Assembly (NCBI GenBank): GCA_963665295.1
Contig: OY762209.1
Coordinates: 1,760,001 to 1,824,000 of the forward strand
Origin: Syntrophorhabdaceae bacterium
GTDB taxonomy: Bacteria; Desulfobacterota; Syntrophorhabdia; Syntrophorhabdales; Syntrophorhabdaceae
Length of the DNA: 64,000 nt
Direction: 5' to 3'
Shown: piece by piece, positions 48,798 through 63,999 of the stretch
How positions within the stretch are numbered: position 1 is the stretch's first letter
Layout: every line of letters begins with the position of its first letter
Program-made: the position numbers and the translations under genes
Notes under the pieces: model-generated
Seen by the model: only the letters and a program-made list of their open reading frames with translations
What the model was told of the DNA's origin: nothing
The model's database searches: none

Positions 48798-49016
48798 AAC
48801 TCCTCCTTTTGCCATTGTTCCGTTGCGGGACCTTTGCGTCGGCAATGGTCGCGCCCCCTTTTCTGCCTTATTTAAGCACAAGCGCCGAAAAGGTAACAGA
48901 CGCAGAATTCCAGTTTTTTCGTCTGACAGTTGCATCCTGAACGCAACTGTGCCCGTGGAATATGGGCCAAAGTGTATTTGTATTCACTCCTTAAGACGCG
49001 GTATAATGGGGCTGTC

Positions 49017-49100
49017 ATGATGGAGAATTCCGGGGTGGAATCGAAAAATCCGTTGCTTTATGAAGATGTCGCCCTCAGAGTGACCGCGATGATCGACAAG
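49017..49100 (+). pseudogene. Remnant N-terminus of a GntR/MocR regulator
   Basis: PLLYEDVALRVTAMI resembles the first helix of GntR; the similarity then stops. Confidence 0.4.
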
Positions 49101-49199
49101 TCAATTAGGTTAGACCGGTCGGCTCATGGTTGGTGTTTCAACTTGAAAACCAGCAGGGATTTGAGCATAATAGACTCAAATGGAGCAGGAGGGAGAGGC

Positions 49200-50693
49200 A
49201 TGATACGCGGAACTTCGAGTCTTACAGTCACGAGTGAACTATCATATTTGCCTGCAATACAGGCTTTCGCACGAGAGTTTGCAAGGGAAACAGGATTCGG
49301 CGGCAATGATCAGGAAATGATCGTTCTGGCCCTTGAGGAGGCTGTTACAAATGTAATCGAGCACGCCTTCGAGTCCGGGGAGCAGCCATTTCAGATTATC
49401 TTCAAGCCCTCGACAGGGGGTATCGAGATCATAGTTAAAGACATGGGCTTGCCTTACGATCTTAGCCTCCTCCCCAAATACGAAGCGCCTACGGACATTG
49501 AGGGGATGCCTTCCAGAGGCCTCGGATCTCTTATCATGGGGAAATGTGTTGACGAGGTGTTTCTCTGTAACCTGGGAAAGGGAGGGAAAGAACTGCATCT
49601 CGTTAAACGCCTACCGGTCAGGAGCGTCGTGGAACTGGTTGAGTGTCCGGAACCTGGCCCGTCTCGGAAACCCGTCGCCGACAAGGATGTGCCCGACTCG
49701 TCCTCTTCAGTTGAGTTGAGGTTGATGAAGTCCTCCGAAGCACTGGAAGTATCCAAGCTCTTCTATCGGGCATACGGGTATTCATACCTGTCGGACGTGA
49801 TGTACTACCCGGAAAGGCTTGCCGAGTACAATCGGGAAGGTCTCATCACTTCGATTGTCGCAGTATCTGAAGAAGGGGAAATTGTCGGACACCTGGCCAT
49901 GACCAGGGAAAAGCGTGACGATACGGTGGCTGAAGCGGGAAAAGGCGCGGTGAAACCAAGCTTCAGGGGCAAAGATATCTTCACGGGGATGCAAAGACTT
50001 CTTAACGACACAGCCAAAGCCATGGGAATCAGGGCCCTTTACGGGAGGGCGGTCACGGTTCATAGCGCTACACAGAAGATGGTGGAGAAGACGGGCTACA
50101 AATTGTGCGGGGTGGTTCTCGGTTACGCTCCGGCTGATATGGCGTTCAAGGGGATCCAGGAGCAACTCTCCCAGCGGGAAAGCCTGATATATTGTTTTCA
50201 GCCCGTCGTTGAGCTGCCGGTCACATCGGTGTTCCTCCCTTCCCATCACGAGGCCATCTTACGCCGGATATACTCGCATCTCGGCCTGACCAGGAATTTC
50301 CACACACCATTCGAAATAGTTCCGGTGGCGGACCTGTCGGTAATGGAAGTGAAGGTGTATTCCGAAATAAACAGTGCGGAGATCGTGGTTCGCCAATATG
50401 GCAAGGATGTTATAAGAGTCCTTCGGGACCACCTGAGAGACCTTTGCGCCAAAAGAATTGATCATTTTACTCTCTTCCTGGATTTGGGGGACCAGGCAAC
50501 GGCCCTCATGTGTGAAGAGATAGAAAGACTGGGATTCTTCATGGGCGGGATCATCCCTTGCCTTCACTTTGAAGACACGCTGATACTCCAATACCTGAAT
50601 AACCTGATTGTCGATCCTTCCAAGATAAAACTGCATTCCCCTATGGTAAAGGAAATTGTCGCCTACGTTAATGACCACATCGGCGGGAAATAG
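49200..50693 (+). CDS. Anti-sigma-type HATPase plus GNAT-fold protein
   Basis: LALEEAVTNVIEHA, DxG, GLG; V.PSFRGK; GGAGAGG RBS. Confidence 0.8.
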   Translation: MIRGTSSLTVTSELSYLPAIQAFAREFARETGFGGNDQEMIVLALEEAVTNVIEHAFESGEQPFQIIFKPSTGGIEIIVKDMGLPYDLSLLPKYEAPTDIEGMPSRGLGSLIMGKCVDEVFLCNLGKGGKELHLVKRLPVRSVVELVECPEPGPSRKPVADKDVPDSSSSVELRLMKSSEALEVSKLFYRAYGYSYLSDVMYYPERLAEYNREGLITSIVAVSEEGEIVGHLAMTREKRDDTVAEAGKGAVKPSFRGKDIFTGMQRLLNDTAKAMGIRALYGRAVTVHSATQKMVEKTGYKLCGVVLGYAPADMAFKGIQEQLSQRESLIYCFQPVVELPVTSVFLPSHHEAILRRIYSHLGLTRNFHTPFEIVPVADLSVMEVKVYSEINSAEIVVRQYGKDVIRVLRDHLRDLCAKRIDHFTLFLDLGDQATALMCEEIERLGFFMGGIIPCLHFEDTLILQYLNNLIVDPSKIKLHSPMVKEIVAYVNDHIGGK

Positions 50694-50857
50694 GGGACAG
50701 GGATGTCCATTAAACTATCAAATAAGCCATACTATAGCCTTTCTGTACCCCTAAGATGATGCACCGCCCCTGCGGCACCAATGCGAGCTTTTCTCGGCAT
50801 GAAGATATCAGGGGGAGCACGGATGTCAAATGAATGTGATTATTTAATGGCCGTCCC
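50691..50857 (-). mobile_element. Internally deleted RAYT derivative 1 (MITE-like)
   Basis: Promoter + MPRKARIGAAGAVHHL joined to KGYSMAYLIV*; end IRs GGGATGTCCATTAAA / TTTAATGGCCGTCCC. Confidence 0.8.
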
Positions 50858-50887
50858 TAATGTACCCTAATGTACCCTAATGTACCC
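50858..50887 (+). repeat. TAATGTACCC x3 tandem repeat
   Basis: Three perfect 10-bp copies abutting the RAYT-type end. Confidence 0.9.
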
Positions 50888-51413
50888 TTTTAATGGACGT
50901 TATATATTCCCATGCATTCACACCAGACTCCGGAGCATAGCAGAAAAAAAGGTTTTTTATCAGACTACCAAAAAATGAGACCCCCTGTTAAGATTGAAGT
51001 TCCACCAACAAACTCAACCAGGAGGTCTCAGATGAAACAAAAAGATGATAGCAGGTTGAAGGAATTTCGTCAATTGAAGCGCGAGATTCGCGGCTCCAGG
51101 GAGTATCTGGTGATCGGCATAGACATCGCGAAGGAGCGCCACCATGCCTTCTTCGGCATGCCCACAGGAAAGACCCTTTTGCGAAGGCTTGTATTCGATA
51201 ATACGAGAGAAGGCTTTGAAAGCCTCTGTCTCCATGCGGATACCCTTGCAAAACAGTACGATCTTAAGAAGGTCGTCTTCGGCATGGAGCCTACGGCAGA
51301 CTATCATAAACCTCTCGCTGAGTATCTCATAGGGCAGGGACATATGGTGAGTTAGGATGGATATAGTGGACACCATATGCGGTACAATATGGATACATAA
51401 CGGAGGTGTCCGA

Positions 51414-51722
51414 GTGGCAAAGATTCCCAGAGGAGTGTTTACAAAAGAGTTCAAAGAGGAAGCGGTAAGAATGGTGACGGAGGGCGGTCTCGGCATACCT
51501 GAGGTAGGCAGAAGACTGTCACTTGCGAAGTCAACCCTCGCTCGGTGGGTAGCCCAGGCAAAAAGGGGCGGCCTTGTGGTAACGCGAGGTCAGGCGACGG
51601 ACCAGGACATGGAAGTGGCCCGCCTGAAGCGTGAGATAGCTGAGCTCAAGATGGAGCGCGATATTTTAAAAAACGCGACCGCGTACTTTGCCAGAGAGTC
51701 GCTCAAAGGTACGCGATCGTGA
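51414..51722 (+). CDS. IS3 OrfA
   Basis: FTKEFKEEAV HTH, leucine zipper ERDILK. Confidence 0.9.
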   Translation: MAKIPRGVFTKEFKEEAVRMVTEGGLGIPEVGRRLSLAKSTLARWVAQAKRGGLVVTRGQATDQDMEVARLKREIAELKMERDILKNATAYFARESLKGTRS

Positions 51723-52579
51723 AAATCCTGCGACTCAAATATCCCCTTGCCCTTCTCTGTCAGGTACTCGAAGTATCTCGAAGCGGTTACTATGCATGGT
51801 TTAACCGCCCGCTTTCGCGACGCGCCCAGGAGGAAGAACGGCTGGAGATAGAGATAAAAGCTGCTCACAAAAGAACCCGGAAGACCTGCGGTCCCGAGAG
51901 ACTGCAAAAGGATCTTGCCGGGCATGGCGTAAAGGTGGGCATCTCAAGGATCAGACGGATAAGGAAGAGGCTCGGTATACGGTGTAAACAAGTGAAGAAG
52001 TACAAAACCACCACAGACTCGAATCATTCGCTCCCCGTGGCGGAGAACATCCTTGATCAGGATTTTACCGTGGAGGCTCCCGACGAGGTGTGGGTCAGCG
52101 ATATCACCTACATCCCTACCGATGAGGGCTGGCTCTACTGTGCCGCCCACAAGGACCTTTTTACCGGGGAGATCGTGGGCTACGCCCTGGGGGCGAGAAT
52201 GACCAGGGAGCTTGTGCTTAGGTCTCTCATAAGAGCAGTGGCAGTAAGAAAGCCACCGAAAGGCCTGATCCACCACTCGGATCGGGGAAGCCAGTACTGC
52301 TCTACTGAATATCAGAGACTACTCCTGCAGTTCGGCATGAAAGCTTCAATGAGCAGAAGGGGCAACTGCTACGACAACGCGCCCATGGAAAGCTTCTGGG
52401 GTACGTTGAAAAATGAGCTTATCCATCACCGTAATTACCATACGAGGGATGAGGCGACCGGGGAGATTACCGAGTATATAGAAGTCTTCTATAACCGGGA
52501 GAGGCGCCAGAAACGGCTCGACTATTTATCTCCTGCGGCATACGCAAGAAGATACTATGCCCAGAAAAGGGCGGCGTGA
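51719..52579 (+). CDS. IS3 OrfB DDE transposase
   Basis: WVSDITY, HHSDRGSQY, GNCYDNAPMESFW. Confidence 0.93.
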   Translation: MKILRLKYPLALLCQVLEVSRSGYYAWFNRPLSRRAQEEERLEIEIKAAHKRTRKTCGPERLQKDLAGHGVKVGISRIRRIRKRLGIRCKQVKKYKTTTDSNHSLPVAENILDQDFTVEAPDEVWVSDITYIPTDEGWLYCAAHKDLFTGEIVGYALGARMTRELVLRSLIRAVAVRKPPKGLIHHSDRGSQYCSTEYQRLLLQFGMKASMSRRGNCYDNAPMESFWGTLKNELIHHRNYHTRDEATGEITEYIEVFYNRERRQKRLDYLSPAAYARRYYAQKRAA

Positions 52580-53571
52580 GAGACATTATTGGTGTCCACT
52601 ATTGACATCGGGGGTCATGGTGGCGCTTGTAGGAGGCGCTGCGGTAAAGAAGAACCGGGAGCTCCTCGATGGACGATGGGATAAACACGATACCAAGGAT
52701 GCCGCGAATGTGGCCGATCTCATTACCCAGGGGAAGTGCCTCTACTATGATCTTCCTTCTCCCGATATAAGAAGCCTAAGAAACCTCCTCTCTTTGTTGA
52801 GACGTCTTAAGAAACAGGAGCAGGGGTATAAGGTAAGGATCAGGAATCACCTTATCGCCCGTTTCTTCCCCGAGATGGATGAGCATTTCCATCACAGTGA
52901 AGGACCGGCCATTGTGAAATGGTGCCTCGATCCGAAAGAGATTACCGCCCTTCCTTTTGAAGAATTCTTTCGTATGGTCTCCCAGGGAAGAGAGAAACAG
53001 CGGATGAGGATACAAGCGATCCATAACAAGGCGGCATCCTCCATAGGCTGTGAGGTGACCCCGAGCGTCCCCTTCGAAGCACGGATGCTCCTTAAGGGGC
53101 TGGAGGAGATCCGTGCCATGGTGCAGGCAACGGACGGGGCAATTGCCAAAGCATGCGCCGGGCTTCCCGAGTACGACTGTCTCCTGAGCATCCCCGGGTT
53201 CGGCCCCCGCATCTCTGCAATGGTACTCGGAGCAATAGGCAATCCCTATAGATTCGAAAATGAGCGCCAGGTGCTTAAGATGGCGGGACTCGATCTCTCT
53301 AAGAACCAGAGCGGGAAGAGCGAGGGTATCCCCGTCATCTCCAAGAAAGGCAAGGCCGATCTCCGATATGGTCTCTACCAGGCGGCGCTTGTCGCCTCTA
53401 CTGCGAATCATCGCCTCATGGCGTACTTTACGGGAAAGCTCCATGGCAGGGAACGGGAGAAAGGGATCGCCACCAAGATGAGGGTGAAGCTCTCCGCAAA
53501 GATGCTGGTCATTGCATGGACCTTGATGAAGAAGAAGGAGATGTTTGATCCGGACATAATGAAGTGAAAGA

Positions 53572-53754
53572 TTATTACCGGCGAGAGAGCCCGTGAATGG
53601 GCGTAGAGGCATATGACCTCGTGGGGGACAATAAAGGGCCTCTCACCAGAATCATGCAACCTGGATAAAGGATGATGGGTGGCCTTAGTGCACACCGGAT
53701 AATGATAACGCTGAGGTGCGGGTTCGCGGTACGGTGAGAATAACCGCCGGATAA
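53572..53754 (+). ncRNA. Putative IS110 bridge/seek RNA
   Basis: Enclosing stem CCGGCG/CGCCGG; loop with AATGGGCGT and GGGGAC matches the insertion target; second loop with AGGATG and ATAAC matches the donor junction. Confidence 0.7.
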
Positions 53755-53937
53755 GAAGGAAGAGAGGACGGGAGGGGTGTGTACTCGTGAAGGTCGTTAT
53801 GAATAAGGGGCTGATATTATTGGCAGTCTGTCGTATTGAAATTAGCTGTTGACAGGAGGATTATAGGATGTCCCTGATGTACCACGACCGGGATCATATC
53901 GAGAGTCGGCCGTAAGTTATGGAGGTCCCCTTCCCTC

Positions 53938-54321
53938 CTAGTAGTGGTCAGCTGAATTTTTCCCAAATTTCCCTTTGTTAGCCTCATAAAACAACTGGTA
54001 TTGAAATCTTCCTTTTGCATCGTAGACATTCATGTACACAAAAGAACTGTCGTCGCGCTTTTCATTATGTTGTTCGTCCCAAAAGAACGTCCTATAGATC
54101 TTAATTAGTTCATCTTCAGCGGGTATTGACCCTTTCTTGCATTGGACCGTGATATAAATCTCCGGTTCCAACGCAAAACTAAACCTATCCCCGTATTGTT
54201 TCTCCATATTATCCAATCGCCGGATATCTTCTGGAGTTGCACGGCTACAGGAAGTCGCAACGAGCAGTATCAACGTGAGCACCGCAATTCTTAGCATCAC
54301 CGGGAGATTCGTATAGAACAT
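53938..54321 (-). CDS. Lipoprotein, immunity-like
   Basis: Lipobox VATS-C; AT-richer than core genes; preceded by a short ORF tail. Confidence 0.65.
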   Translation of the reverse strand: MFYTNLPVMLRIAVLTLILLVATSCSRATPEDIRRLDNMEKQYGDRFSFALEPEIYITVQCKKGSIPAEDELIKIYRTFFWDEQHNEKRDDSSFVYMNVYDAKGRFQYQLFYEANKGKFGKNSADHY

Positions 54322-54410
54322 GATAGCCTCGTTAGTAACCCTGATAGGGTTTTCTTGCCGCTGCGATACCTGCTTCGTTTGCGGTCAAATCACTCCACTG
54401 AAATGCCCAA

Positions 54411-54630
54411 GGGGGCACAGGGACGCCCATCAAACCATCAAATCATCCATGCTATAGCCATTCTCTCTCACCAGGGCTTCGCCTCTTGCGACTGCAATGC
54501 TTACTGCGGGCTGACCCATACCTAGCCTCCCGGCCACTGCCGTTGCGGTCATGTGAAGCCGTCTTACGGTATCAGGGAGGGGTACGGATGTCAAGGAAAG
54601 TTCATTAGCTAATGCCCCCCTAATGTCCCC
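54411..54630 (-). mobile_element. Internally deleted RAYT derivative 2
   Basis: TTGACA-17-TACCGT joined to an HTH tail (VAGRLGMGQPAVSIAVARGEALVRENGY); end TTTGATGGGCGTCCC. Confidence 0.8.
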
Positions 54631-54646
54631 TCTATGGGTTTGTCGC

Positions 54647-55102
54647 CTATGGGTTCGCCGGTTCCATACGTTCCAACTTCAGTTCCTTTCTGCTTGGCAC
54701 TGGGGAAATTCTCTCTATATCTGTCAGACCGCCGGAGTATATGTCCGGGGCGCTCTTGGGTTTGGCCTTAAAGGTACCCTGCACCAATATATACTGTTCG
54801 TTGAATTTTCTTGCATCCGGAAATTTGCCAATATGGATTCTAACGGCATTCTTCATTAGAAGATATTCGAAATCTTCACGGTGAAAATACAAGGCATTGC
54901 TTTCGAAATCTAAGCAGAGATAACCAAAAGTAGTAACCTCTTTGCCGTGATAAACGTGAGGGTTCGCCATGAGATCAACCATTGATGCCAAATATCCAGT
55001 GGGAGGACTCTCGCCGTAAGGTAATGTGTTGAAGGACGCACAGGAAAAGAGAGACATTCCCACCCATGAAATGCAACCTACCAGAACCAGGAATCTTTTC
55101 AT
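54647..55102 (-). CDS. Lipoprotein of unknown function
   Basis: Lipobox LFS-C; GGAGAGG RBS. Confidence 0.65.
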   Translation of the reverse strand: MKRFLVLVGCISWVGMSLFSCASFNTLPYGESPPTGYLASMVDLMANPHVYHGKEVTTFGYLCLDFESNALYFHREDFEYLLMKNAVRIHIGKFPDARKFNEQYILVQGTFKAKPKSAPDIYSGGLTDIERISPVPSRKELKLERMEPANP

Positions 55103-55118
55103 CTTTAAACCTCTCCAG

Positions 55119-55136
55119 GGGGGACTAAACTATTAC
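55119..55136 (+). repeat. Solo IS66-type terminal inverted repeat
   Basis: GGGGGACTAAACTATTAC versus IS66 right end GGGGGACTAAACTGTTAC (17/18). Confidence 0.7.
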
Positions 55137-55159
55137 GTTACGCCCCCACGTACGTCTTC

Positions 55160-56107
55160 TCAGGAGATCCATGTTGGGAATAGACCGACTACCCGCCAAC
55201 CTTCTCCATCATACTTGAGGACATAGTCATACCCATAACCGCAGGTGTTTCCGCAAAAAAGACCAACCGAGCACATGGCCCGCTTCCCATCCTTTGTCAC
55301 GAAGACGTCGAACGAAATGAAATGGTGATATTTATCGTAATCGATGAGTGGTTCGTAGCGCCATGTGTCAGCGGTGCGTTTCCAGATACGCTTTGCCTTC
55401 AGCTCAACAAAGGCATCGCTCATGCTAATATTGGGAATTCCAAATCGGAATACTGTGAGAATTACCGCATCCGGGCCCTTTGCCGAAACCGCCTGAGGAG
55501 TGTGCCATTCCCTCCCATTAACTCGTTCAAGGGTAAATTTTACTTCTTCGCTTGGGACGGTGAGTTCCTTAGACCTATTCTTGAGAGCCGTCTTGGCGAT
55601 CTCTGGCTTCAGAACCGCGAGGGAATATGCTGCCGCCCTGGGCGCCAGGCCTTTCACCCCTCCCCAAGCCGATCCCGACAAGGAATCCATGAGAAAATTG
55701 ATATCTTCGCCCGAACCGGTACTTTGCATCGCTTTACAAAGGATGGCTCTCATGACGTCCCTATAAGTTTCATCTGCACTTTCATCATACATCTTGCGGA
55801 AGAATCGCACTACCTCAGGACCACCTATGCGCACAAGGCAGTTTACCGCTATATCGGCCTGGCCGACGTTCGAAGCGGTCACGTTTTTGACGGCTTCCGA
55901 CAAAATAGGTATAGCCTTGTCCCCCGCTTCCAGGCAGACTTTAGGCATAGACTCTTTCGCAGACACCAACTCTTCCGTTGGATGGGGGTTAGCTGAAAAG
56001 AAGTCCTTTAGGATTGTTCCCTCGCTGCGCGACTGGGCATCGCAGTCAACGAAGCGAAAGAACATGATAACGAACACCAGCACCATCACAAGGTTCCTGT
56101 TCTTCAT
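55160..56107 (-). CDS. Secreted HEAT-repeat-like hypothetical protein
   Basis: Signal peptide, helical repeats, C-terminal CGNTCG. Confidence 0.6.
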   Translation of the reverse strand: MKNRNLVMVLVFVIMFFRFVDCDAQSRSEGTILKDFFSANPHPTEELVSAKESMPKVCLEAGDKAIPILSEAVKNVTASNVGQADIAVNCLVRIGGPEVVRFFRKMYDESADETYRDVMRAILCKAMQSTGSGEDINFLMDSLSGSAWGGVKGLAPRAAAYSLAVLKPEIAKTALKNRSKELTVPSEEVKFTLERVNGREWHTPQAVSAKGPDAVILTVFRFGIPNISMSDAFVELKAKRIWKRTADTWRYEPLIDYDKYHHFISFDVFVTKDGKRAMCSVGLFCGNTCGYGYDYVLKYDGEGWRVVGLFPTWIS

Positions 56108-56240
56108 TTGTCCCCTTCTTCTATTTTCACCACTTGCGAGGTATCGTCCCACTCACTGCCCCAGGCACCCCGAAACCATAGGCGTGCTGCCAACCACATA
56201 GGCTTTGGGCTTTGGCAACGACCGTAAATAACTAAATAAC

Positions 56241-57212
56241 TCATAGTACATAGCCCTTCTCACGAGCAATCCTCTCCCCCCGTTCAACTGCGTATCCTAT
56301 CCCCGGCGGAGTCATGTTGAGAAATCGGGCGATCCGGGCCGCAGGAAATCGTCCGTGGAGATGAGCCCAGAAGCAGAAAAGACTTCGAGCTTCCACCACG
56401 GCAGACCTGCGGCTTCCACTGCCGAGACTCTCGAGGGTAATGCCATAGAGCTCGCGGACCCGTCCGGCGAGATAATCGAGGGTCGGACCTTCCGGGTCGG
56501 CCGTGATGCGGCGGGGTTCTCCGGTAAGCATCCTCTGAACAAAATCGCTGTCTCCCAGTATGCGTTCATCGCCTTTTACGCGTTGACCGGTCTTTTTCAC
56601 CGCTGCCCACGAACCATAACTTCTTATCAGTCCGCCGCCTACCAGGTCAGGCCTCTTCCCTCTGAGAAGTCGGTTCTCCATCGAGGAAAGGTATGCCTCT
56701 CGTGCAGTCTTCAGGCCGAAATAACGGAGCACGTAGTCCGTATCCTGCCATGGATGAAGGACCTCGCCCATGAGGACGGCATGACCGGAGTAAGGGTAGG
56801 TTGAAAGCCCCGCAAGGTCCTTGATGATTCCTGCCCTTATGGGATTGAGATGAATATATAAGACCAGTTCGGTGAGATAGGCGTCTTCCTGACAGAGAAT
56901 CGACTTGTATCGATTCTGAAAGAGTTGGCCATGGCGGTGATATTTTTTATTGAAGGTGACTGCATGACCCGTAAGAAGACGGGCCATGACTGTGTGGAGA
57001 GGAGTCTCGCCTGTTTTGAGCAAAAGGTGGGCGTGATTGCCGAGGAGCGCCCATGCGTAACAGGGAGTGTGGGTGTCGTCGAATATCTTCCCCATCCGCT
57101 CCGCAAAACGGTCTCTGTCACTATTATCACGGAAGATTAACCGTCGCTCGATGCCACGGACAATTATATGGTGGAGCACACCTTCGGCGTCCAGACGGGC
57201 ATGGCGCGGCAT
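56241..57212 (-). CDS. REP-associated-type tyrosine transposase (Y1 HUH) with C-terminal DnaA-like HTH
   Basis: MPRxAR, HHIIVRG, NHAHLL (HUH), FQNRYKS, YIHLNP, YPYSGH, C-terminal HTH. Confidence 0.9.
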   Translation of the reverse strand: MPRHARLDAEGVLHHIIVRGIERRLIFRDNSDRDRFAERMGKIFDDTHTPCYAWALLGNHAHLLLKTGETPLHTVMARLLTGHAVTFNKKYHRHGQLFQNRYKSILCQEDAYLTELVLYIHLNPIRAGIIKDLAGLSTYPYSGHAVLMGEVLHPWQDTDYVLRYFGLKTAREAYLSSMENRLLRGKRPDLVGGGLIRSYGSWAAVKKTGQRVKGDERILGDSDFVQRMLTGEPRRITADPEGPTLDYLAGRVRELYGITLESLGSGSRRSAVVEARSLFCFWAHLHGRFPAARIARFLNMTPPGIGYAVERGERIAREKGYVL

Positions 57213-57217
57213 AGGTG

Positions 57218-57246
57218 ATGGTATCAGGTGGAGAGGGGCATGTCAA
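57218..57246 (-). promoter_or_regulatory. Sigma70 promoter of the RAYT gene, probably leaderless
   Basis: TTGACA-17-TACCAT with extended TG; ATG follows after 5 nt with no RBS. Confidence 0.7.
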
Positions 57247-57422
57247 GGGTTATTTACTTATTTACGGTCGTCCCCCAATGTTCCGGTGGAGAGGGGGTAA
57301 CAGTTTAGTCCTCTCGGAACTTTTTCCAGCAAAATATTATGTCTAATTTCCACAAAACCTTTGATTTCCTTGTTCCATGATGGTATTATAATAGGAGTAC
57401 TACTACTCAGTCGGAGGGTTCA

Positions 57423-57701
57423 ATGGAACAAATCGATCTTCTTAAAAGGCAGCGGGAGAGACTTAAGGAGGACATTGTCGCACAGCTGGATTTCTTCCTT
57501 ATCGGGACGGTGGCCAAGTCCCCTTCCATGACGGGCCACTCCCTTACCACAAAAGTGAAGGGGAAGACCGTAACCGTGTATGTGAGAAAACAGATTGCCG
57601 AGAAGGCGAAGGAGATGACGAAGCGGTACAAGATGATGTGGCTTCTCATACAGAAGCTTTCTAAGATCAACTGGGAGATACTGAAACAGGAGAGCGAGTG
57701 A
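57423..57701 (+). CDS. IS66 accessory protein (DUF6788-like)
   Basis: GGAGG RBS; KVKGKTVTVYV; GTGA overlap with the transposase. Confidence 0.6.
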   Translation: MEQIDLLKRQRERLKEDIVAQLDFFLIGTVAKSPSMTGHSLTTKVKGKTVTVYVRKQIAEKAKEMTKRYKMMWLLIQKLSKINWEILKQESE

Positions 57702-59218
57702 AGAGGGTCTATCCTCCATACGGCTACGATTGTCTTTATAAGGACAATTGCCCCCATCTTAACTTTCTCTCCACCCTATGGGTCTTTGGAGAATATGAGC
57801 GGGCCCATGAGGTGTACGAAGAGCATCTTCGGATTATCGATGTGTTCCGGGACAGGCTGGATGACACCATGAAGCGTATCCGTCTTTTAGAGAAGGAGAA
57901 CGAGGAACTGAAGGCGAAGAATACCGCATTGCATCGAAGACAGTTCAAGGCGAACAAAAAACCGGAGCATGCGGTCTCTTTGGCAGGGAGGAAGCGCGGC
58001 GCTCCGGTCGGACACCCCGGGTGGTTCAGGCCCGAGCCTGCCCGCGTGGATGCGACGGTTCACGTGCCCGCTCCCGATCGATGCCCCCATTGCGGGTCAG
58101 GCCCTCTTGTCCCCGGGGAAGGGATCCGTGAGCATGTGCAGGAAGACATTGTCATAAGACCCCGCACGGTGGTGAGACGGTATGTGCATAAGGAAGCATA
58201 CTGTAGCCGTTGCGGGCGTTCTGTGGTGAAGGCGGCTCCCGACGAACTTCCGAATGCTCCTATCGGACCGGTTACGAAATCCGTTGCCTTATACTTGCGG
58301 TACAGGATAGGTATGAGCTATCGAAAGGTAGAGGAAGTTATGAGGGAGATCTTCGGCCTTGCCTTTGTCCCTGCTTCGGCAGTGGGGTTTGACAGGGCTG
58401 CGGCGAAAAGGGGGACACCTCTTTATGAAGACCTCCGGGAGAAGATACGCGCCTCGGAAATAGTTCATGCCGATGAGACATCATGGAGGAACGACGGGAC
58501 CGGTCATTACGCGTGGTATGCGGGAAACGCCGATCTTGCCCTCTTCCATATCGACCGGCACCGCTCGACAGACGTGGCTCAACATCTTCTCGGGGACAAC
58601 TTCGACGGGGTGCTCATCACCGACCGCTATGCCGCGTATAACGGAGTTCATGCGAGAGAAAGGCAGACATGCCTTGCCCACCTTATCACCAGGGCCAGGG
58701 AGTTGACCCGGGAGCTCGTCCTCATGGAGACAAGAGATACAAAAGCGGAGGCGTTCTGTGATGCGGTCGGGAGGCTCTTCTCGGATGCCTGCGCCGCGGG
58801 CGGGGATCTTCTTAAGGGAAAGAGAGAGTGGGGAGATGCTCCCCGCATCGAGAAGCAATTGAGAGCAACCCTCGGGAAGATATGTGCAAAGCCCCTCAAG
58901 TATAAGCCGGCGGAAGGGCTCCGTACCTTCCTTACCGGCAAAGACCGGAAGTTTCTCTTCACGTTCCTTCGCTATCCGGGAGTACCACCTACCAACAACC
59001 AGGCAGAACAGTCGATCCGCTTCCTGGTGATCATGAGGAAGCTCATGTTCGGTACGCGGTCGGCAACGGGACTGAAGACCCACAGTATCCTGCCGAGTCT
59101 CATCATTACTTCCATGAGGCAAGGGAACGATCCACGGAAGTTCCTGGAGACGCTCCTGGTGTCGGATACCGTGACGGCAAAGGCGGCACTCTATCGCAAT
59201 GGGGCGAGGGCTCCGTGA
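57698..59218 (+). CDS. IS66 transposase TnpC
   Basis: GAPVGHPG, CPHC..CSRC, HADET, TDRY, CLAH, TNNQAEQ. Confidence 0.92.
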   Translation: MKRVYPPYGYDCLYKDNCPHLNFLSTLWVFGEYERAHEVYEEHLRIIDVFRDRLDDTMKRIRLLEKENEELKAKNTALHRRQFKANKKPEHAVSLAGRKRGAPVGHPGWFRPEPARVDATVHVPAPDRCPHCGSGPLVPGEGIREHVQEDIVIRPRTVVRRYVHKEAYCSRCGRSVVKAAPDELPNAPIGPVTKSVALYLRYRIGMSYRKVEEVMREIFGLAFVPASAVGFDRAAAKRGTPLYEDLREKIRASEIVHADETSWRNDGTGHYAWYAGNADLALFHIDRHRSTDVAQHLLGDNFDGVLITDRYAAYNGVHARERQTCLAHLITRARELTRELVLMETRDTKAEAFCDAVGRLFSDACAAGGDLLKGKREWGDAPRIEKQLRATLGKICAKPLKYKPAEGLRTFLTGKDRKFLFTFLRYPGVPPTNNQAEQSIRFLVIMRKLMFGTRSATGLKTHSILPSLIITSMRQGNDPRKFLETLLVSDTVTAKAALYRNGARAP

Positions 59219-59967
59219 GGGGGACTAAACTGTTACACGTTTCCCTCCCTGGAATTATTGTTCGCAGCACGGCAACGCATCATGGAGCTTGTACCTTCGG
59301 GATAGATGATGAGAAGCGGGGAAGAGACTCTTTGTGGAACGAGACGGCGAAAGGAGGGGTGTGCCCAAATCTTACCCGTCACAGAGGCGTGTGCCATGTC
59401 TGGATAGACGAAACGGAACAAAAGTTCATATTTGATTCCGATTTAAAGGGTGGTGGGGAAAGACGGCTCGGATGGAGGGCAAAGCAGCGGTAAGGGCGAG
59501 AGGGGTGGTGGATTATGGTTCATCAAGCTGCTTGACTTTTGCGCATGGTCATAGGATCATATTAGGTAAAAAGTTTGTTTCAAGCGAAGATCGATTGCCA
59601 TACTGTGAGGTGAGCCGGGTTCCACAATTCTTGGATATGAGAGAGGAATGACGCAAAATGAGAGCTTATTTGTCGCAAGTTCCTATGAGGAGAACGGAGA
59701 TCATCCCTATTTCCAGATTACGAAGAAGAATAGTGCCCAGCCTTGTGGTAACGGTTGGTGGATTGGGTTTTTGATGGTTTAGGCATCGAGGGGGCTGGTT
59801 TGGTGGAAATCTGAATGGGAAAAATGGCAAAAGCGTTCGAACTTCGCAAAAGATGGAAAAGATTTAGGTGTCAGCCAGTCTTTCTGGAGATTTGCCCTGA
59901 CTACGGTAGGGTCTGGACAGAAGAAAAGGCTAGACCATCGAACCGCTTAGCGTTTTTCCTGGCAAAG

Positions 59968-60483
59968 ATGAATATTGGTCCGAGGGAGCGGCGTTTTTGT
60001 GTTGTAATTCTTTTAGTCTTTCTCGTTGGGCTCGCAATTTCAGCGAACGCCGAGGTTTTGATTCATGATGAGCATATAGCGGCTGCCAAGGCGGTGGAAT
60101 TTGGACGGGCAGCATTTGTGGAACAAGATTTTCAAGATGCTTACCGACTTCTCAGCGATGAAACAAAAGCAAATTGGTCATTCTCACAGATGACTGAAAT
60201 GATTAAGAAGATGCACCCATATGGATTTCCCTTGAAGATCATAGCTGTCGAATTTGAACCCATGCCTGGAGAACGATCCATGAATATCTTTCTTCGAGGT
60301 TCGAGGAAGAGCGAGGACTTTCATTACCGTTTGGTGATGCATGGAGATGCGGGTGCCGGTTACCACATATCAGGCTTCTTTCGTGGAACCGGCCCATATC
60401 CTCCGTCGCCGATGCGGATGCGTTTGAAAAATGGAGGCCAAAACTGCTCAATGGAGAAAATACTTTTCAAAGATTATTACTAA
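59968..60483 (+). CDS. Secreted hypothetical protein (DUF4019/DUF3887-like)
   Basis: Signal peptide, DFQDAYRLLS; start uncertain. Confidence 0.55.
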   Translation: MNIGPRERRFCVVILLVFLVGLAISANAEVLIHDEHIAAAKAVEFGRAAFVEQDFQDAYRLLSDETKANWSFSQMTEMIKKMHPYGFPLKIIAVEFEPMPGERSMNIFLRGSRKSEDFHYRLVMHGDAGAGYHISGFFRGTGPYPPSPMRMRLKNGGQNCSMEKILFKDYY

Positions 60484-60521
60484 TGTATTTCTGTTTTTGG
60501 CAAAACCCTCCCTTTCTTCTC

Positions 60522-60752
60522 TCAAAAGAACTTAACAATTCCAACAACTGTATATGCCAAACCTCCTATACAAGCCGCCAAAGCCATCAGTAAAGACAAT
60601 ATTTCATAGGTTTGTCTACTGAGCCCAAGCGATCTTTGTACCTCATAGAACTGGAATAGTTGCCAAGCCCTGCGCTTATAAGAGACTAGAGAGAACAGCC
60701 CTACAGCGAGAAACAATGTCCCCGCAAGGATGTCACTCAATCCGTCCGTCAT
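60522..60752 (-). CDS. Putative Rhs immunity membrane protein
   Basis: Two TMs; starts 25 nt downstream of the Rhs stop. Confidence 0.6.
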   Translation of the reverse strand: MTDGLSDILAGTLFLAVGLFSLVSYKRRAWQLFQFYEVQRSLGLSRQTYEILSLLMALAACIGGLAYTVVGIVKFF

Positions 60753-60777
60753 GAGGCCTTCGCTGAGATCATAACGG

Positions 60778-63700
60778 TCAAAAGAACTTTCGAAAATCTA
60801 CAATCGGATTCTTTTGGATGTAACACCTCTGCGCAGAATAACCAGGTGTTCCACCGCCAGTCTCGGTGAATGGCCCAGATTGGTCGCCCCTGCCCCATGA
60901 GGCTGCTGTCCCACCTTGCGAGCGTTGGTATTGCGTAAACCACTCGCCAGGAACAAAATCAGAACCACCGTAAGTAATCGACAGTCCTGCAATTGTGGGA
61001 CCTCCAGATACTCCGTAACAATTGTAAGGATATATGCCGTTAGAATTGATTAGGTATCCTCCTCCCACAATAATGAGCGAGCCACTAATATCTACATAAC
61101 CCGCGGGGGTGACCGTTCCGTAAGAGACATTCAGACTTGATGATATTTGTTCTTGTGCCTGTTGTGGCGAATTACTATTGTTAGTGGGCGACTGTTTCAT
61201 GATTTTAGTCATCCCTATGCTCGCAAAATATCCCGCCGCAGCTCCCACTGCGCCATTAACGAACCCTTGCCCAAAGTTTCCTCCCGCGAGTGCCGTGATT
61301 CCACCGCCTACCAGTCCGCCGGCCGCTATAGAAACCCCAGCCTGCACAAACGCGTCTTTGATACCCATCGCGCCAACGCCCATCCCGGTTAACCCGCCAG
61401 CCGCTGCCCCTATTGCGCCGTAAAGCGCGCCTTGTCCCATATCACCGCCCGTAATGGAGGCGTTAATCACTCCGGCCATTGCACCACCAACCATGCCTCC
61501 GGCATAGACCAAAGACCCCGAAATAGCCCCGGTAAGCATCCCTTGTCCAATGTTTGTGCCATTGACCGCCGCAACCGTGCCCCCGGCTACGGCACCAATA
61601 ATAGCCATTATGGCCATCCCTATAAGGAGCGACAACCCGAAGTCATTCCCACTGGGGTCCACATATGTTACCGGATTATTCACGCAATAGCTATACCTGT
61701 TGAACGCCTGGAGGTTCCCCGGTTCGGGCACTATGCTGTCGGGGGAGATGAATCTTCCCAATACGGGGTCATAGAGCCTTGCCTTGTAGTTGTAGAGACC
61801 CGATTCGTCATCATATTCCTGATCGGTGAAGGTGTAATTCACGAGCGGGAAGCTGTAGGTCTCGTGGACCCGGTATGTCCCGAAGGGGTCGTACTCGACC
61901 TTTTCTTTTCTTGCTCCGTTGTCATCGGTTACTATGGATGCGGAGTTCAGGTGGTTCCCGTGGATGGTCTGGTTCCCGTCCGACCGTAGGGACATGACGC
62001 GGGTAGAGCCCGCGAATATATGGAAGACAGGTATCGAGTTTCTCTCTTCATAAATTTCCCCGAAATAAAGGACCGTCCCTGAAGCCCCCATCTTTCTCAC
62101 CCTTGAGCCGTTGCCGTCATAAGTATAGGTTGTTGTCCCAATGGTAAGGGGTCTATTGTCCGTTGTCCATGTGATGTCCAGGGTCGGGCCGCCGGAGACG
62201 GCCCTCTGGGTCATATTACCGTTCGCGTCATAACCGAGACCGATGTTCAAAACTCCTACCGTGTTACGCACGGCATGAGGCTTATCGGCATAATTATAGT
62301 GATAAGTCCCCACATCAGATTTGGTAAGGATATTCCCCAACGTGTCATAGGTAAAGCTCTGGGTGTACGCGCCCGTGCCGGTCCCCACCGCCGAGGTAAG
62401 CCTGTCAAGGCTGTCGTATTCGTAATCATGGACGATGTTATTCACCGTATCGGTAACGATGTGCGCATTGCCGTTTGCATCGAACTGATAGGCAAGGGCC
62501 TGATAGGTTTCCACGGGGGATCCGCCGTTCAGCCTGGTGGTGGTGAGAGACGAGAGTCTCCCCATTGCCGGGTCGTAATTATAGTCCGTCTCCACGGAAT
62601 AGGGATACGCTTTGGGGGATGTCGCCTTCTTGTGTTTATTGAGGGCATTATAGTCGGAGTACATAACGAGGGTGCTCGATGCGGTAACATTGGTAATCGA
62701 TGCGATGTTCCCCGCTGTCAAGGTCGCGTTTGTCCCGGGGTCAAAGGTGGTGTCGTAGGCGTAAGCGATTTGCTTCCTTTTGATGGGGTCGTCCGGAAAA
62801 TAGGTAAGCGTCCTCATCCTCCCCGCCGTGTCGTACTCCCTGGCGATTACGGTGGAGACCGGATTCAACAGGGGGCCGATCGATTTCCGGCTCTTCGTGA
62901 TCCTCTGCATGATGTCGAGTTCAAGGACCGTGTCCTTCTTGTATTCCTTGGCTCCCGAATTGTTCTCTGCGGACACATCGGTGAGCTTGCCCGTGGCGTA
63001 TGAGCAAGATGGAACGCCGGTGACGCACGCGTCATAGGTGTAGGTAACGGTGTCGGTGGCGGTCGTCTTGGTATGCACGCGGTTAAGCTGGTCATAAAAA
63101 AAGTTGGTTTGTTGGTATTTGGCGTCTGTCTGAGACGTGAGGTTTCCCGATTTGTCGTAAATATAGGTCCAGTATCCCATATCGGGATCGTTCATGGACT
63201 TCTTTTTTGACATGCTGTCGTAGGTCATGGAAGTAGTGATGAAAAGAGAGGCGTTTTCCGGGTTCGGCCTTATCACGTGGGCCAGGTTCCCGAGGAGATC
63301 ATAATCATAGGTGGTGAGCGTACCGATGGCATCGGTAACTCCTCTCAGCTTCTCGAACACGTCATAGCATGACCTGGTCGAGAGGCCTCTTTGGTTCGTC
63401 ACTACTTTGCAACGCCCCTCGTAGGACGTGCTAATATGATTGTCGTCGGGCAGCTTCACGTCTACGACCCTGGAGAGGCCGTCATAGGTGTGCTCGGTCC
63501 AATAGTTCGGACGGCTCGTGTCGGAGAAGTAGGGGTTCCACTTCTTCCATACCCTTCCCACGTTGTCATAGTCCGTATCCAGCACGATGTTCCTGGGTGT
63601 GCCCGTGTCGTTGGAACCCGTGGTGGTGGCCCTGTAGGTGCGGCCCAGGCCGTCAAAGAGAGAATAGGTGTCGTGCTGGATCACGGACAACCCGGAGTGG

Positions 63701-63999
63701 ATTTCTTCGGTCTTCTGCACGTACTGCGTGGCGGGATCACCGAAAAGCATGTAGTCATAGGTGGTAACGCCCCCGTCCGGCCGGGTCTCGGTTGAAATCC
63801 GCCCCAATGGATCGTACGCGTAGGAGAAGCCGTATGAGGTACCCTGAAGATAAGGTGGAATCATGGTGACGACCTTCCCGATGCCCGGGTCATACATGGT
63901 CGTGGTGACGTGGCCGACGCAGTTGGCGGTCGTAGAGACATAGGTGCTCGTGGCGCTGTCGTAGGTCATGGTGGTGGTGCAGCCGGGATAGAGATCATT
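60778..63999 (-). CDS. Rhs/YD-repeat toxin, 5'-partial
   Basis: YD repeats; core FTDQEYDDESGLYNYKARLYDPVLGRFISPD...NNPVTYVDPSG; Gly-rich C-terminal domain. Confidence 0.93.
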   Translation of the reverse strand, partial: NDLYPGCTTTMTYDSATSTYVSTTANCVGHVTTTMYDPGIGKVVTMIPPYLQGTSYGFSYAYDPLGRISTETRPDGGVTTYDYMLFGDPATQYVQKTEEIHSGLSVIQHDTYSLFDGLGRTYRATTTGSNDTGTPRNIVLDTDYDNVGRVWKKWNPYFSDTSRPNYWTEHTYDGLSRVVDVKLPDDNHISTSYEGRCKVVTNQRGLSTRSCYDVFEKLRGVTDAIGTLTTYDYDLLGNLAHVIRPNPENASLFITTSMTYDSMSKKKSMNDPDMGYWTYIYDKSGNLTSQTDAKYQQTNFFYDQLNRVHTKTTATDTVTYTYDACVTGVPSCSYATGKLTDVSAENNSGAKEYKKDTVLELDIMQRITKSRKSIGPLLNPVSTVIAREYDTAGRMRTLTYFPDDPIKRKQIAYAYDTTFDPGTNATLTAGNIASITNVTASSTLVMYSDYNALNKHKKATSPKAYPYSVETDYNYDPAMGRLSSLTTTRLNGGSPVETYQALAYQFDANGNAHIVTDTVNNIVHDYEYDSLDRLTSAVGTGTGAYTQSFTYDTLGNILTKSDVGTYHYNYADKPHAVRNTVGVLNIGLGYDANGNMTQRAVSGGPTLDITWTTDNRPLTIGTTTYTYDGNGSRVRKMGASGTVLYFGEIYEERNSIPVFHIFAGSTRVMSLRSDGNQTIHGNHLNSASIVTDDNGARKEKVEYDPFGTYRVHETYSFPLVNYTFTDQEYDDESGLYNYKARLYDPVLGRFISPDSIVPEPGNLQAFNRYSYCVNNPVTYVDPSGNDFGLSLLIGMAIMAIIGAVAGGTVAAVNGTNIGQGMLTGAISGSLVYAGGMVGGAMAGVINASITGGDMGQGALYGAIGAAAGGLTGMGVGAMGIKDAFVQAGVSIAAGGLVGGGITALAGGNFGQGFVNGAVGAAAGYFASIGMTKIMKQSPTNNSNSPQQAQEQISSSLNVSYGTVTPAGYVDISGSLIIVGGGYLINSNGIYPYNCYGVSGGPTIAGLSITYGGSDFVPGEWFTQYQRSQGGTAASWGRGDQSGPFTETGGGTPGYSAQRCYIQKNPIVDFRKFF

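Follow-up and report, generated by a model that had tools for sequence, protein, structure and literature searches.

The window analysed here is a 64,000-nucleotide stretch of a Syntrophorhabdaceae bacterium (GCA_963665295.1, contig OY762209.1, forward strand), corresponding to positions 1760001-1824000 of a single-contig genome of 5.5 Mb. We describe an island in this window around a gene for a Y1 HUH transposase, which with its flanking terminal inverted repeats (TIRs) fits a TIRtron and its transposase, TIRYT. The island is probably a TIRtron hot spot that has been exploited by two other insertion sequences (IS), of the IS66 and IS110 families. Coordinates are those of the window unless marked as genome coordinates, and relatives are given by our genome numbers (G001 and so on).

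Read on the minus strand, the order is the 3' end of an Rhs gene, a small membrane gene, IS66, the left TIR, the Y1-HUH gene and the right TIR, followed by cargo 1, an 18-nt IS66 remnant, cargo 2, the MITE (miniature transposable element with inverted repeats) M2, cargo 3, a TIR split by IS110 (which itself holds an IS3), the MITE M1, and the stop codon of a HATPase-GNAT gene. IS110 and the inner IS3 make up about 3 kb of the 6.6-kb interval 50691-57284. A-type denotes the TIRtron of the intact gene in the window and B-type a second TIRtron of the genome. The features, with strand, are the following.

48930..50693, plus: HATPase_c_2-GNAT gene, convergent, the left flank of the island; its G001 ortholog runs on without the island
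50693..50700, plus: target-like motif GGGGACAG, also in the uninterrupted G001 ortholog; homology stops here and a B-type right TIR starts
50694..50887, minus: MITE M1, an internally deleted B-type TIRtron; right TIR core at 50700, left core at 50857, three tandem 10-nt tails at 50858-50887
50885..50898, minus: inner half of the outer tandem left TIR, split by IS110
50899..53869, plus: IS110-family element, inserted at the GT of the TIR core and interrupted by IS3 (51347-52617)
53870..53883, minus: outer half (core tip and tail) of the IS110-split TIR
53938..54321, minus: cargo 3, a 127-aa lipoprotein-like protein, preceded by a 28-codon open remnant
54411..54631, minus: MITE M2, an internally deleted B-type TIRtron; right core at 54420, degenerate left end with a tandem tail at 54610-54631
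54647..55102, minus: cargo 2, a 151-aa lipoprotein-like protein
55119..55136, minus: IS66 inverted-repeat remnant of 18 nt, cut at its G-run-AC motif
55160..56107, minus: cargo 1, a 315-aa secreted-looking, HEAT-like protein
56211..56240, plus: right TIR of the A-type TIRtron, with a degenerate core
56241..57212, minus: putative TIRYT, a Y1 HUH transposase with a C-terminal helix-turn-helix (HTH), H60/H62/Y119 intact
57249..57284, minus: left TIR of the A-type TIRtron, with its core at 57274, a tail, and an inward -35-like hexamer at 57246
57275..57296: spacer of 22 nt between the TIR core and the IS66 left end, equal in length at all seven IS66 arrays of the genome
57297..59236, plus: IS66-family element of 1940 bp, with a DUF6788 open reading frame (ORF) at 57423-57701 and TnpC at 57698-59218
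60778..63969, minus: 3' part of the Rhs/YD gene (2166 aa in the genome), then a small membrane-protein gene at 60522-60752

The protein encoded at 56241-57212 matches Y1_Tnp (PF01797, E 1.9e-8, 34.9 bits) and, weakly and under the gathering score, Bac_DnaA_C (E 0.0017; PF08299 is found in many close homologs). Among 50 homologs H60 and H62 are invariant and Y119 is nearly invariant, and all three are conserved here, in agreement with an earlier note, made from the sequence of this window, which described an intact Y1-HUH gene with an HTH. The gene is flanked by 30-nt TIR arms, 87% complementary, which the note had overlooked together with the IS66 element at 57297-59236. In the repeat search, whose 25 longest pairs were considered without folding, this TIR pair appeared but no family of local hairpins, and the score against the family NF047646 of transposases associated with repetitive extragenic palindromes (REP-RAYT), 55.7 bits, did not reach the cut-off of 80. 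Because of the Y1 domain with its weak HTH match, the intact catalytic residues, the 30-nt TIR pair, and the sub-cut-off REP-RAYT score, the predicted transposase fits the TIRYT/TIRtron kind, TnpA-Y1 subclass 2.1.

The earlier note knew of no description of such a system; the element kind is described (Di Nocera et al. 2013, PMC3733652; Quentin et al. 2018, PMC6006769), and TIRYT/TIRtron was equated with TnpA-Y1 subclass 2.1 by Quentin et al. TIRYTs are named in two distinct papers of the literature searched. The motif of the majority of published TIRs, not of all, is GGGGWSAS; it is exact in one of seven ends in the window, and GGG[AT]C[AG] is found in six of seven. The literature passages covered hold no description of TIRYT activity. 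Within the true RAYT groups, Bertels et al. (PMC5581495) place group 1 first in rate of duplication. Close transposase homologs carry Syntrophus and Syntrophorhabdaceae names. TIRYT homologs are common (7,960 of 8,000 candidates scored), and a single-protein search of the genome contigs returned 10 loci, 8 of them in one metagenome-assembled genome.

Two A-type copies, 98% identical and with different flanks, are present in the genome (the second at genome 825725), together with two B-type TIRYT copies (genome 849001 and 860498), 44% identical to A. The Y1 gene of the window had been taken as the head of an array interleaved with deleted RAYT copies. Deleted copies are indeed interleaved, but they derive from the B-type TIRYT: M1 and M2 match the B-type elements (81-91% over 46-158 nt, with one more 23-nt match at 83%) and gave no blastn match to the A-type element of the window, so these remnants do not descend from the intact gene. 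Close copies of M1 with other flanks, at genome 1347843 and 1363444, indicate movement in trans. All four motifs quoted in the earlier note were found where it had placed them, and its short "scars" are real sequences, namely TIRs, except that the one at 53870 is half of a single TIR split by IS110. The proposed motif enrichment holds for AATG[TC][AC]CC, with 5 occurrences on the plus strand of 50691-57300 vs 0.34 expected, but not for bare GTCCC (12 vs 8.6).

Genome-wide, the 21 TIR elements lie mostly in low-GC DNA and form 9 clusters, whereas random placement gave 19.2 on average and in none of 10,000 draws a number this low; the element count rests on 29 of 32 regular-expression hits, three having been excluded for want of further TIR likeness. 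Tandem left TIRs recur in relatives, suggesting that TIRs themselves may serve as targets. A "solo TIR" at genome 845193 was discarded, as the G002 ortholog aligns across it with a 3-nt gap, and TIRs, inspected by eye, point both ways with respect to replication from the origin near 1.09 Mb, an observation that was not used. At genome 861848-872690 a type I restriction-modification (RM) cluster lies between a right and a left TIR, both within 400 nt, and other TIR clusters border defence-like or toxin-antitoxin-like genes, their functions being judged from N-terminal sequence. In G015 (L271:12464-13765) a secreted-looking gene is located between two outward-pointing TIRs, about 8 kb downstream of the HATPase-GNAT ortholog. 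A 280-bp repeat at 59243-59522, which we take to be one end of an IS1380-like element, has six further genome copies (96-98%) and also abuts a TIR at genome 1354090.

The island border was compared with the HATPase-GNAT ortholog of the same-genus relative G001, which is 91.75% identical up to 50700 and has no island thereafter. The G001 ortholog already has GGGGACAG at the border, and the B-type TIR directly follows this motif in the window; a similar motif is present at this point in G007. The left border of the island is a TIR joined at a pre-existing GGGGACAG, and this one clean empty-site test supports motif breakpoints, which the earlier note had proposed to look for in orthologs. Eight further comparisons of island DNA against five relatives gave no second empty site ending at a TIR, and in the comparison made at the 2372-kb island the gap of G001 stops some 690 nt away from the TIR. 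The stop codon of the HATPase-GNAT gene (50691-50693) directly abuts the TIR junction; the G001 ortholog has a Ser codon there and is six codons longer.

Cuts at TIR tails were also detected in this genome for an IS66 at 837276 and another at 2659493, and in relatives a HATPase gene (G003) and a fragment of Rhs (G028) are likewise cut at TIRs. The orphan Rhs tip with an immunity-like gene that occurs in G015 starts 13 nt from the right core of a MITE and ends at the left end of the parent TIRtron. Among the four right-end fragments of IS66a listed, two stop at TIR tails, one at another repeat, and one continues as a diverged IS66 (by eye); two further pieces, the remnant at 55119 and a fragment of a related IS66, break off at GGGG[AT]C motifs (by eye). 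Insertion with adjacent deletion accounts for the TIR junctions as well as capture of foreign DNA does.

The element at 50899-53869 has the DEDD_Tnp_IS110 and Transposase_20 domains. Homology of relatives to this IS110 ends at 50897 and 53874, and a single B-type TIR, divided at a GT, supplies both its flanks, the inner half on one side and the outer half on the other. The 32 IS110 loci of class relatives gave 28 right ends, 26 of them distinct; 18 continue as GT-CCC and two nearly so (by eye). All three GT-CCC loci with a readable left flank match, by eye, TIR types of the TIRYT loci scanned, the other 15 being unproven as TIRs.

The TnpC of the IS66 element scores 233.7 bits against NF033517 (cut-off 180), with PF03050, and the element has 15-nt perfect inverted repeats of the GTAA type. 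GTAA-type inverted ends and an 8-bp target duplication are features of the IS66 family. TnpA and TnpB, the accessory genes of the classical IS66 subgroup, are absent, and the DUF6788 ORF (92 aa) alone precedes TnpC, a layout for which we take the TnpC-only ISBst12 grouping as a comparison. The genome has 13 full copies in 7 arrays, and every array is beside a TIR. In all seven the left end lies exactly 22 nt outside a GGGACG core, with seven different spacers, and TIRs of the A-type, the B-type, and one more type are targeted. With 4128 occurrences of GGGACG genome-wide, this hexamer alone is not the targeting signal. The 8-bp duplication is intact at four of the seven arrays. IS66 has landed within a tandem TIR at genome 2655037 and also in G475, splitting its outer copy and duplicating 8 bp of it, so IS66 inserted second.

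The spacing was then followed in other genomes by an exact scan for the 15-nt IS66 end in metagenome and phylum loci, which gave at least 169 matches; 20 were too short and 17 duplicates were removed, leaving, among the matches listed, 132 ends (21 left, 54 right, and 57 unclassified). In this discovery set, again among the matches listed, GGG[AT]C[AG] was at offset 21-22 in 10 of 21 left ends and in 0 of 54 right ends, the background being 2 of 1008 offsets. For 17 held-out left ends, of which the small ORF had led to 14 (four loci without an end or ORF match were dropped), the core was at 21-22 in 11 and at 21-24 in 13. Altogether 23 of 38 left ends outside this genome vs 0 of 54 right ends, among the matches listed, have the core at 21-24, and none of 15 further right or unclassified IS66 ends has it. 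A motif-free profile of the 38 left ends peaks at offsets 21-23 (G 61-76%); the right ends are flat. Three targeted left ends among the matches listed run straight into a TIRYT start codon, two are beside a TIRYT 3' end, and in G034 copies of one IS66 are found at two different TIR types.

No account of IS66 or IS110 targeting of TIRYT ends was found in the literature searched, ISfinder, most subscription journals, and supplements being outside that search; DUF6788 is in none of the papers listed for it, and the IS66 passage of PMC8944449 has nothing on targets. The DUF6788 ORF had no match in plasmids or viral contigs, and nine viral matches to the IS66 repeat gave no IS66 or TIRYT match. As judged from these sequence patterns, fixed-distance, oriented IS66 insertion beside TIRs is the well-supported new part of the picture and appears to be undescribed.

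Several observations on IS66 stand apart from the spacing. Tandem dimers and trimers with 7-9 nt spacers are present at genome 819804-825640, 1356390-1362224, 2293559-2297445, and 2655037-2658924, and their spacer sequences recur across arrays, which suggests circle or dimer intermediates, or possibly recombination between copies. A second IS66 type sharing the 15-nt repeat has ends at genome 673319, 837201, 1119916, and 2659591, none full, and at least two of the ends are inside TIR sequence. A group of metagenome loci (L033, L040, L041, L055, L079, L086, L093, L124, L125, L135, L144) has a repeat containing the 15-mer, then a shared flank and a CTAAC-like, attC-looking sequence; the group was unclassified as IS66 and was not used, and it may be another element, targeting attC.

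The three cargo genes are co-oriented with the TIRYT gene, and their N-termini are hydrophobic, signal-peptide-like or lipobox-like by eye (no predictor was used), as the earlier note had it; for their supposed identity as orphan immunity genes no proof was obtained, cargo 1-3 giving no family match. Cargo 1 (315 aa) has a homolog in 1 of 95 class genomes (G024, 46%), and the homolog search with cargo 2 (151 aa) returned only itself. For cargo 3 (127 aa) no homolog turned up in 95 class genomes or in 400 phylum genomes, so that no genomic context was readable; its family has 201 representatives with an invariant Cys and no Pfam family common to the members. The note's statement that IntI and attC are lacking agrees with 13 TIGR02249 matches in the genome, the best at 73.9 bits and none over 265, and with the absence from 50691-60800 of an RYYYAAC...GTTRRRY core pair, the attC consensus, at a distance of 40-130 nt. 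Logan contigs of four runs showed four joints on 49500-62500; three match paralogous joins elsewhere, as far as readable, and the remaining one skips 66 nt within IS3. Excision of cargo did not show up, but such contigs cannot demonstrate absence, and the result was not used.

Short open remnants between right TIRs and cargo starts, at 54335-54418 and 56108-56216 (both minus), could be cut toxin tips; the 28-codon, toxin-tip-like remnant at 54335-54418, before cargo 3, had no NCBIfam family match. The Rhs gene that the earlier note saw nearby is confirmed, ending at 60778, and a second Rhs gene (genome 2660050-2666601, 73% DNA identity over the 3' part) is followed by immunity-like genes, IS66 copies, and a TIR, in the order of the window.

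Other origins of the layout were weighed. The IS66-TIR spacing might be caused by TIRtrons inserting beside IS66 ends, by spread of the composite, by promoter targeting, or by a mistaken end, all of which we regard as very improbable. The inverted repeat of IS66a does contain a G-run-AC motif, which is the cut point of two IS66 remnants; left TIRs also carry a -35-like hexamer, which is 49-50 nt from the IS end in five of the seven arrays here. Yet the hexamer, where present, sits anywhere between 38 and 57 nt from the IS end and was not found at 19 of 30 targeted ends, while the core is constant at 21-24, and ends beside TIRYT 3' ends are targeted too, which makes promoter targeting unlikely. 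Mimicry of an IS66 end is contradicted by the orientation of the TIR core, opposite to that which an end-to-end junction needs, and the reversed order of insertion by the duplications kept in four of seven arrays and the outer tandem TIR copies split by IS66. The seven spacers, moreover, all differ, and no array is without a TIR. For the cargo, the earlier note had proposed integron-like accumulation of foreign fragments; in this model TIRYT would be a dedicated capture enzyme, cutting single-stranded foreign DNA at motifs like GGGGAC and piling up the pieces, orphan toxin tips and immunity genes among them, beside its ends as integrons or ISCR do, and this we consider unlikely. It would fit with each cargo gene of the window being 16-110 nt from a TIR-derived or G-run-AC junction, with the empty-site junction at a core-like motif, with the G015 Rhs orphan module at a TIR tail between MITE and parent and the G028 Rhs fragment cut at a TIR, with TIRs on both sides of the type I RM cluster, each no more than 400 nt away, and with a cargo GC content of 0.42-0.51 vs 0.547 for the genome.

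Against such an enzyme, neither of the two cargo homologs with context (for cargo 1 the one in G024, for the type I RM cluster its G003 ortholog) carries TIRs, other orphan Rhs arrays of G015 have no TIR at the module starts, the gene in the window is not the parent of the remnants, and no cargo was seen at two places with identical TIR borders. Of 26 TIRYT loci scanned, 19 had a definable TIR, and 13 of these have only 1-2 own-type copies within about 10 kb and 6 have extras, a count that leaves 7 loci unscored and would miss mixed-type arrays like that of the window. The idea that TIRYT genes generally head arrays is not supported by these loci, and integron-like gene capture by TIRYT is unproven. 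More doubtful still is a neutral graveyard, in which recombination of Rhs orphans in the usual way, along with other transfer, brought in the cargo, while TIRtrons and IS piled up where they were tolerated. Low GC content and an abundance of many IS families mark the islands, the G015 orphan Rhs arrays form without TIRs, cargo homologs lie in TIR-free accessory patches, and the arrival of cargo could still be explained in this way; tolerance, however, cannot yield a constant 22-nt spacing with a single orientation, insertion at the core dinucleotide, or a junction exactly at a pre-existing core-like motif.

A TIRtron hot spot used by IS66 and IS110 remains our preferred explanation, and a number of points weigh against it. 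There is a single true empty site for a TIR junction, and the IS66 junction sequence at genome 837276 is not GGGGACA-like, so the TIRYT target rule would be loose. The IS66 of the window itself has no target duplication, 57 of the 132 IS66 ends among the matches listed were not assignable to left or right, and 15 of the 38 left ends outside this genome are without the strict core at 21-24. The strict core pattern was picked from this genome and the published consensus after the spacing had been seen, so the held-out set is the sole clean test, and 11 of its 17 ends come from G475 (7) and G034 (4), so that Fisher values overstate. Six of the 26 IS110 relatives are at other targets. Finally, the activities of the proteins are predicted here, and the role of the DUF6788 ORF is a guess.

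With the hot spot as the preferred explanation, the island may have formed as follows. TIRYT would move TIR-bounded full elements and MITEs, whose anatomy is seen here, by a chemistry that we infer, and would join ends at G-runs or GGGGACA-like sites, earlier TIRs included, giving tandem ends, clusters, and breakpoints in neighbour genes. Cargo without a recombination site of its own could be caught between a right end and the next left end by repeated insertion with adjacent deletion or by one-ended transfer. The IS66 subgroup with the 92-aa DUF6788 ORF and TnpC would then insert by ordinary DDE chemistry with an 8-bp duplication, a pattern observed here for which the mechanism is presumed, its left end facing the TIR 22 (21-24) nt outside the GGG[AT]C[AG] core, most likely guided by a TIR that TIRYT occupies. 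IS110 inserts into the TIR core itself, presumably with an RNA guide, as its family suggests, and both IS would add repeats and ends for further rearrangement of the island. TIR hunting by two IS families would explain part of the cassette-array look of TIR islands, and the island provides a natural target junction and ready substrates for TIRYT.

On balance we expect that IS66 is guided by the TIRYT-occupied TIR (tethering), and the use of two TIR types by one IS66 in G034, and of three here, leans to it. A serious, though less favoured, prospect is direct reading, by TnpC or by the small ORF, of a longer, degenerate TIR sequence; this is possible because only 82 sites of the genome fit the 14-nt TIR consensus. 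The DUF6788 model (predicted local distance difference test 79.9) is a helix-hairpin-helix with no PDB match at E<=0.001, and a complex prediction for TIRYT with the DUF6788 ORF scored 0.00 twice and was used neither for nor against binding. More tentatively, TIRtron ends could be protein-occupied landing pads in general, at which bound TIRYT splices foreign or neighbouring DNA into arrays and a widespread two-gene IS66 subgroup docks on the TIRYT-TIR complex, perhaps via DUF6788. If true, this would be a minimal Tn7-like or res-hunter targeting that could be re-aimed by moving the binding site of the adaptor; no report of such targeting in the IS66 family was found in the literature searched. 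The IS66 spacing is a directly testable targeting rule for a 1.9-kb element: dependence on TIRYT would mean that TIRs are occupied in vivo and would add a compact protein-tethered integrase, and reading of DNA would mean sequence-specific IS66 cutting away from the recognition site.

Compared with known systems, the island resembles integrons in its co-oriented arrays of unrelated genes and ISCR in having an HUH enzyme beside captured DNA. It differs from integrons in having no IntI, attC, or cassette-borne site, and from ISCR/IS91, with their rolling-circle Y2 enzyme, in the Y1 enzyme with two inverted ends. The IS66 element is like its family (NF033517) in a TnpC over the curated cut-off, GTAA-type ends, and the 8-bp duplication, and differs in that DUF6788 replaces the usual accessory genes and in the oriented, fixed-distance targeting, which is undescribed in the literature searched. 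The transposase resembles TIRYT as given in the covered parts of PMC3733652 and PMC6006769 in its Y1 HUH domain with a C-terminal DnaA_C-like HTH, in flanks that are TIRs, not REP hairpins, and in moderate-size families with TIRs dispersed or grouped; the cores differ from the published ones in being mostly GGGACG, and the passages available from these two papers give no target site, MITE-cargo arrays, or TIR-targeting IS.

Insertion into repeats has precedents, IS4321/IS5075 at Tn21 TIRs, ISKpn4 at attC, and ISPa11 at REP (PMC11187229), and ISPsy8, ISPpu9/10, and ISRm19/22, which target repeats of this kind (PMC1525189). These IS take the repeat of another element as a safe, recurrent target, to which IS110 here is a direct parallel, and they insert within the repeat, whereas IS66 here keeps a fixed distance from the repeat and lies outside; among the targets named in the parts of the two sources covered there are no TIRtron TIRs. 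As read from its junctions, IS110 at TIR cores is a putative new target class for known behaviour. For IS66, the nearer likeness is to the res-site hunters Tn5053/Tn402, for which the available part of PMC7765201 gives one-orientation insertion at res sites and rare transposition without an external resolvase: in both cases a DDE transposon inserts in one orientation beside the recombinase site of another element. Tn5053/Tn402 use TniABQ, whereas IS66 here has TnpC with the 92-aa DUF6788 ORF and its target is the TIR of an HUH transposon. By this analogy the IS66 element would work like a res-site hunter and is not a member of the Tn5053/Tn402 family.

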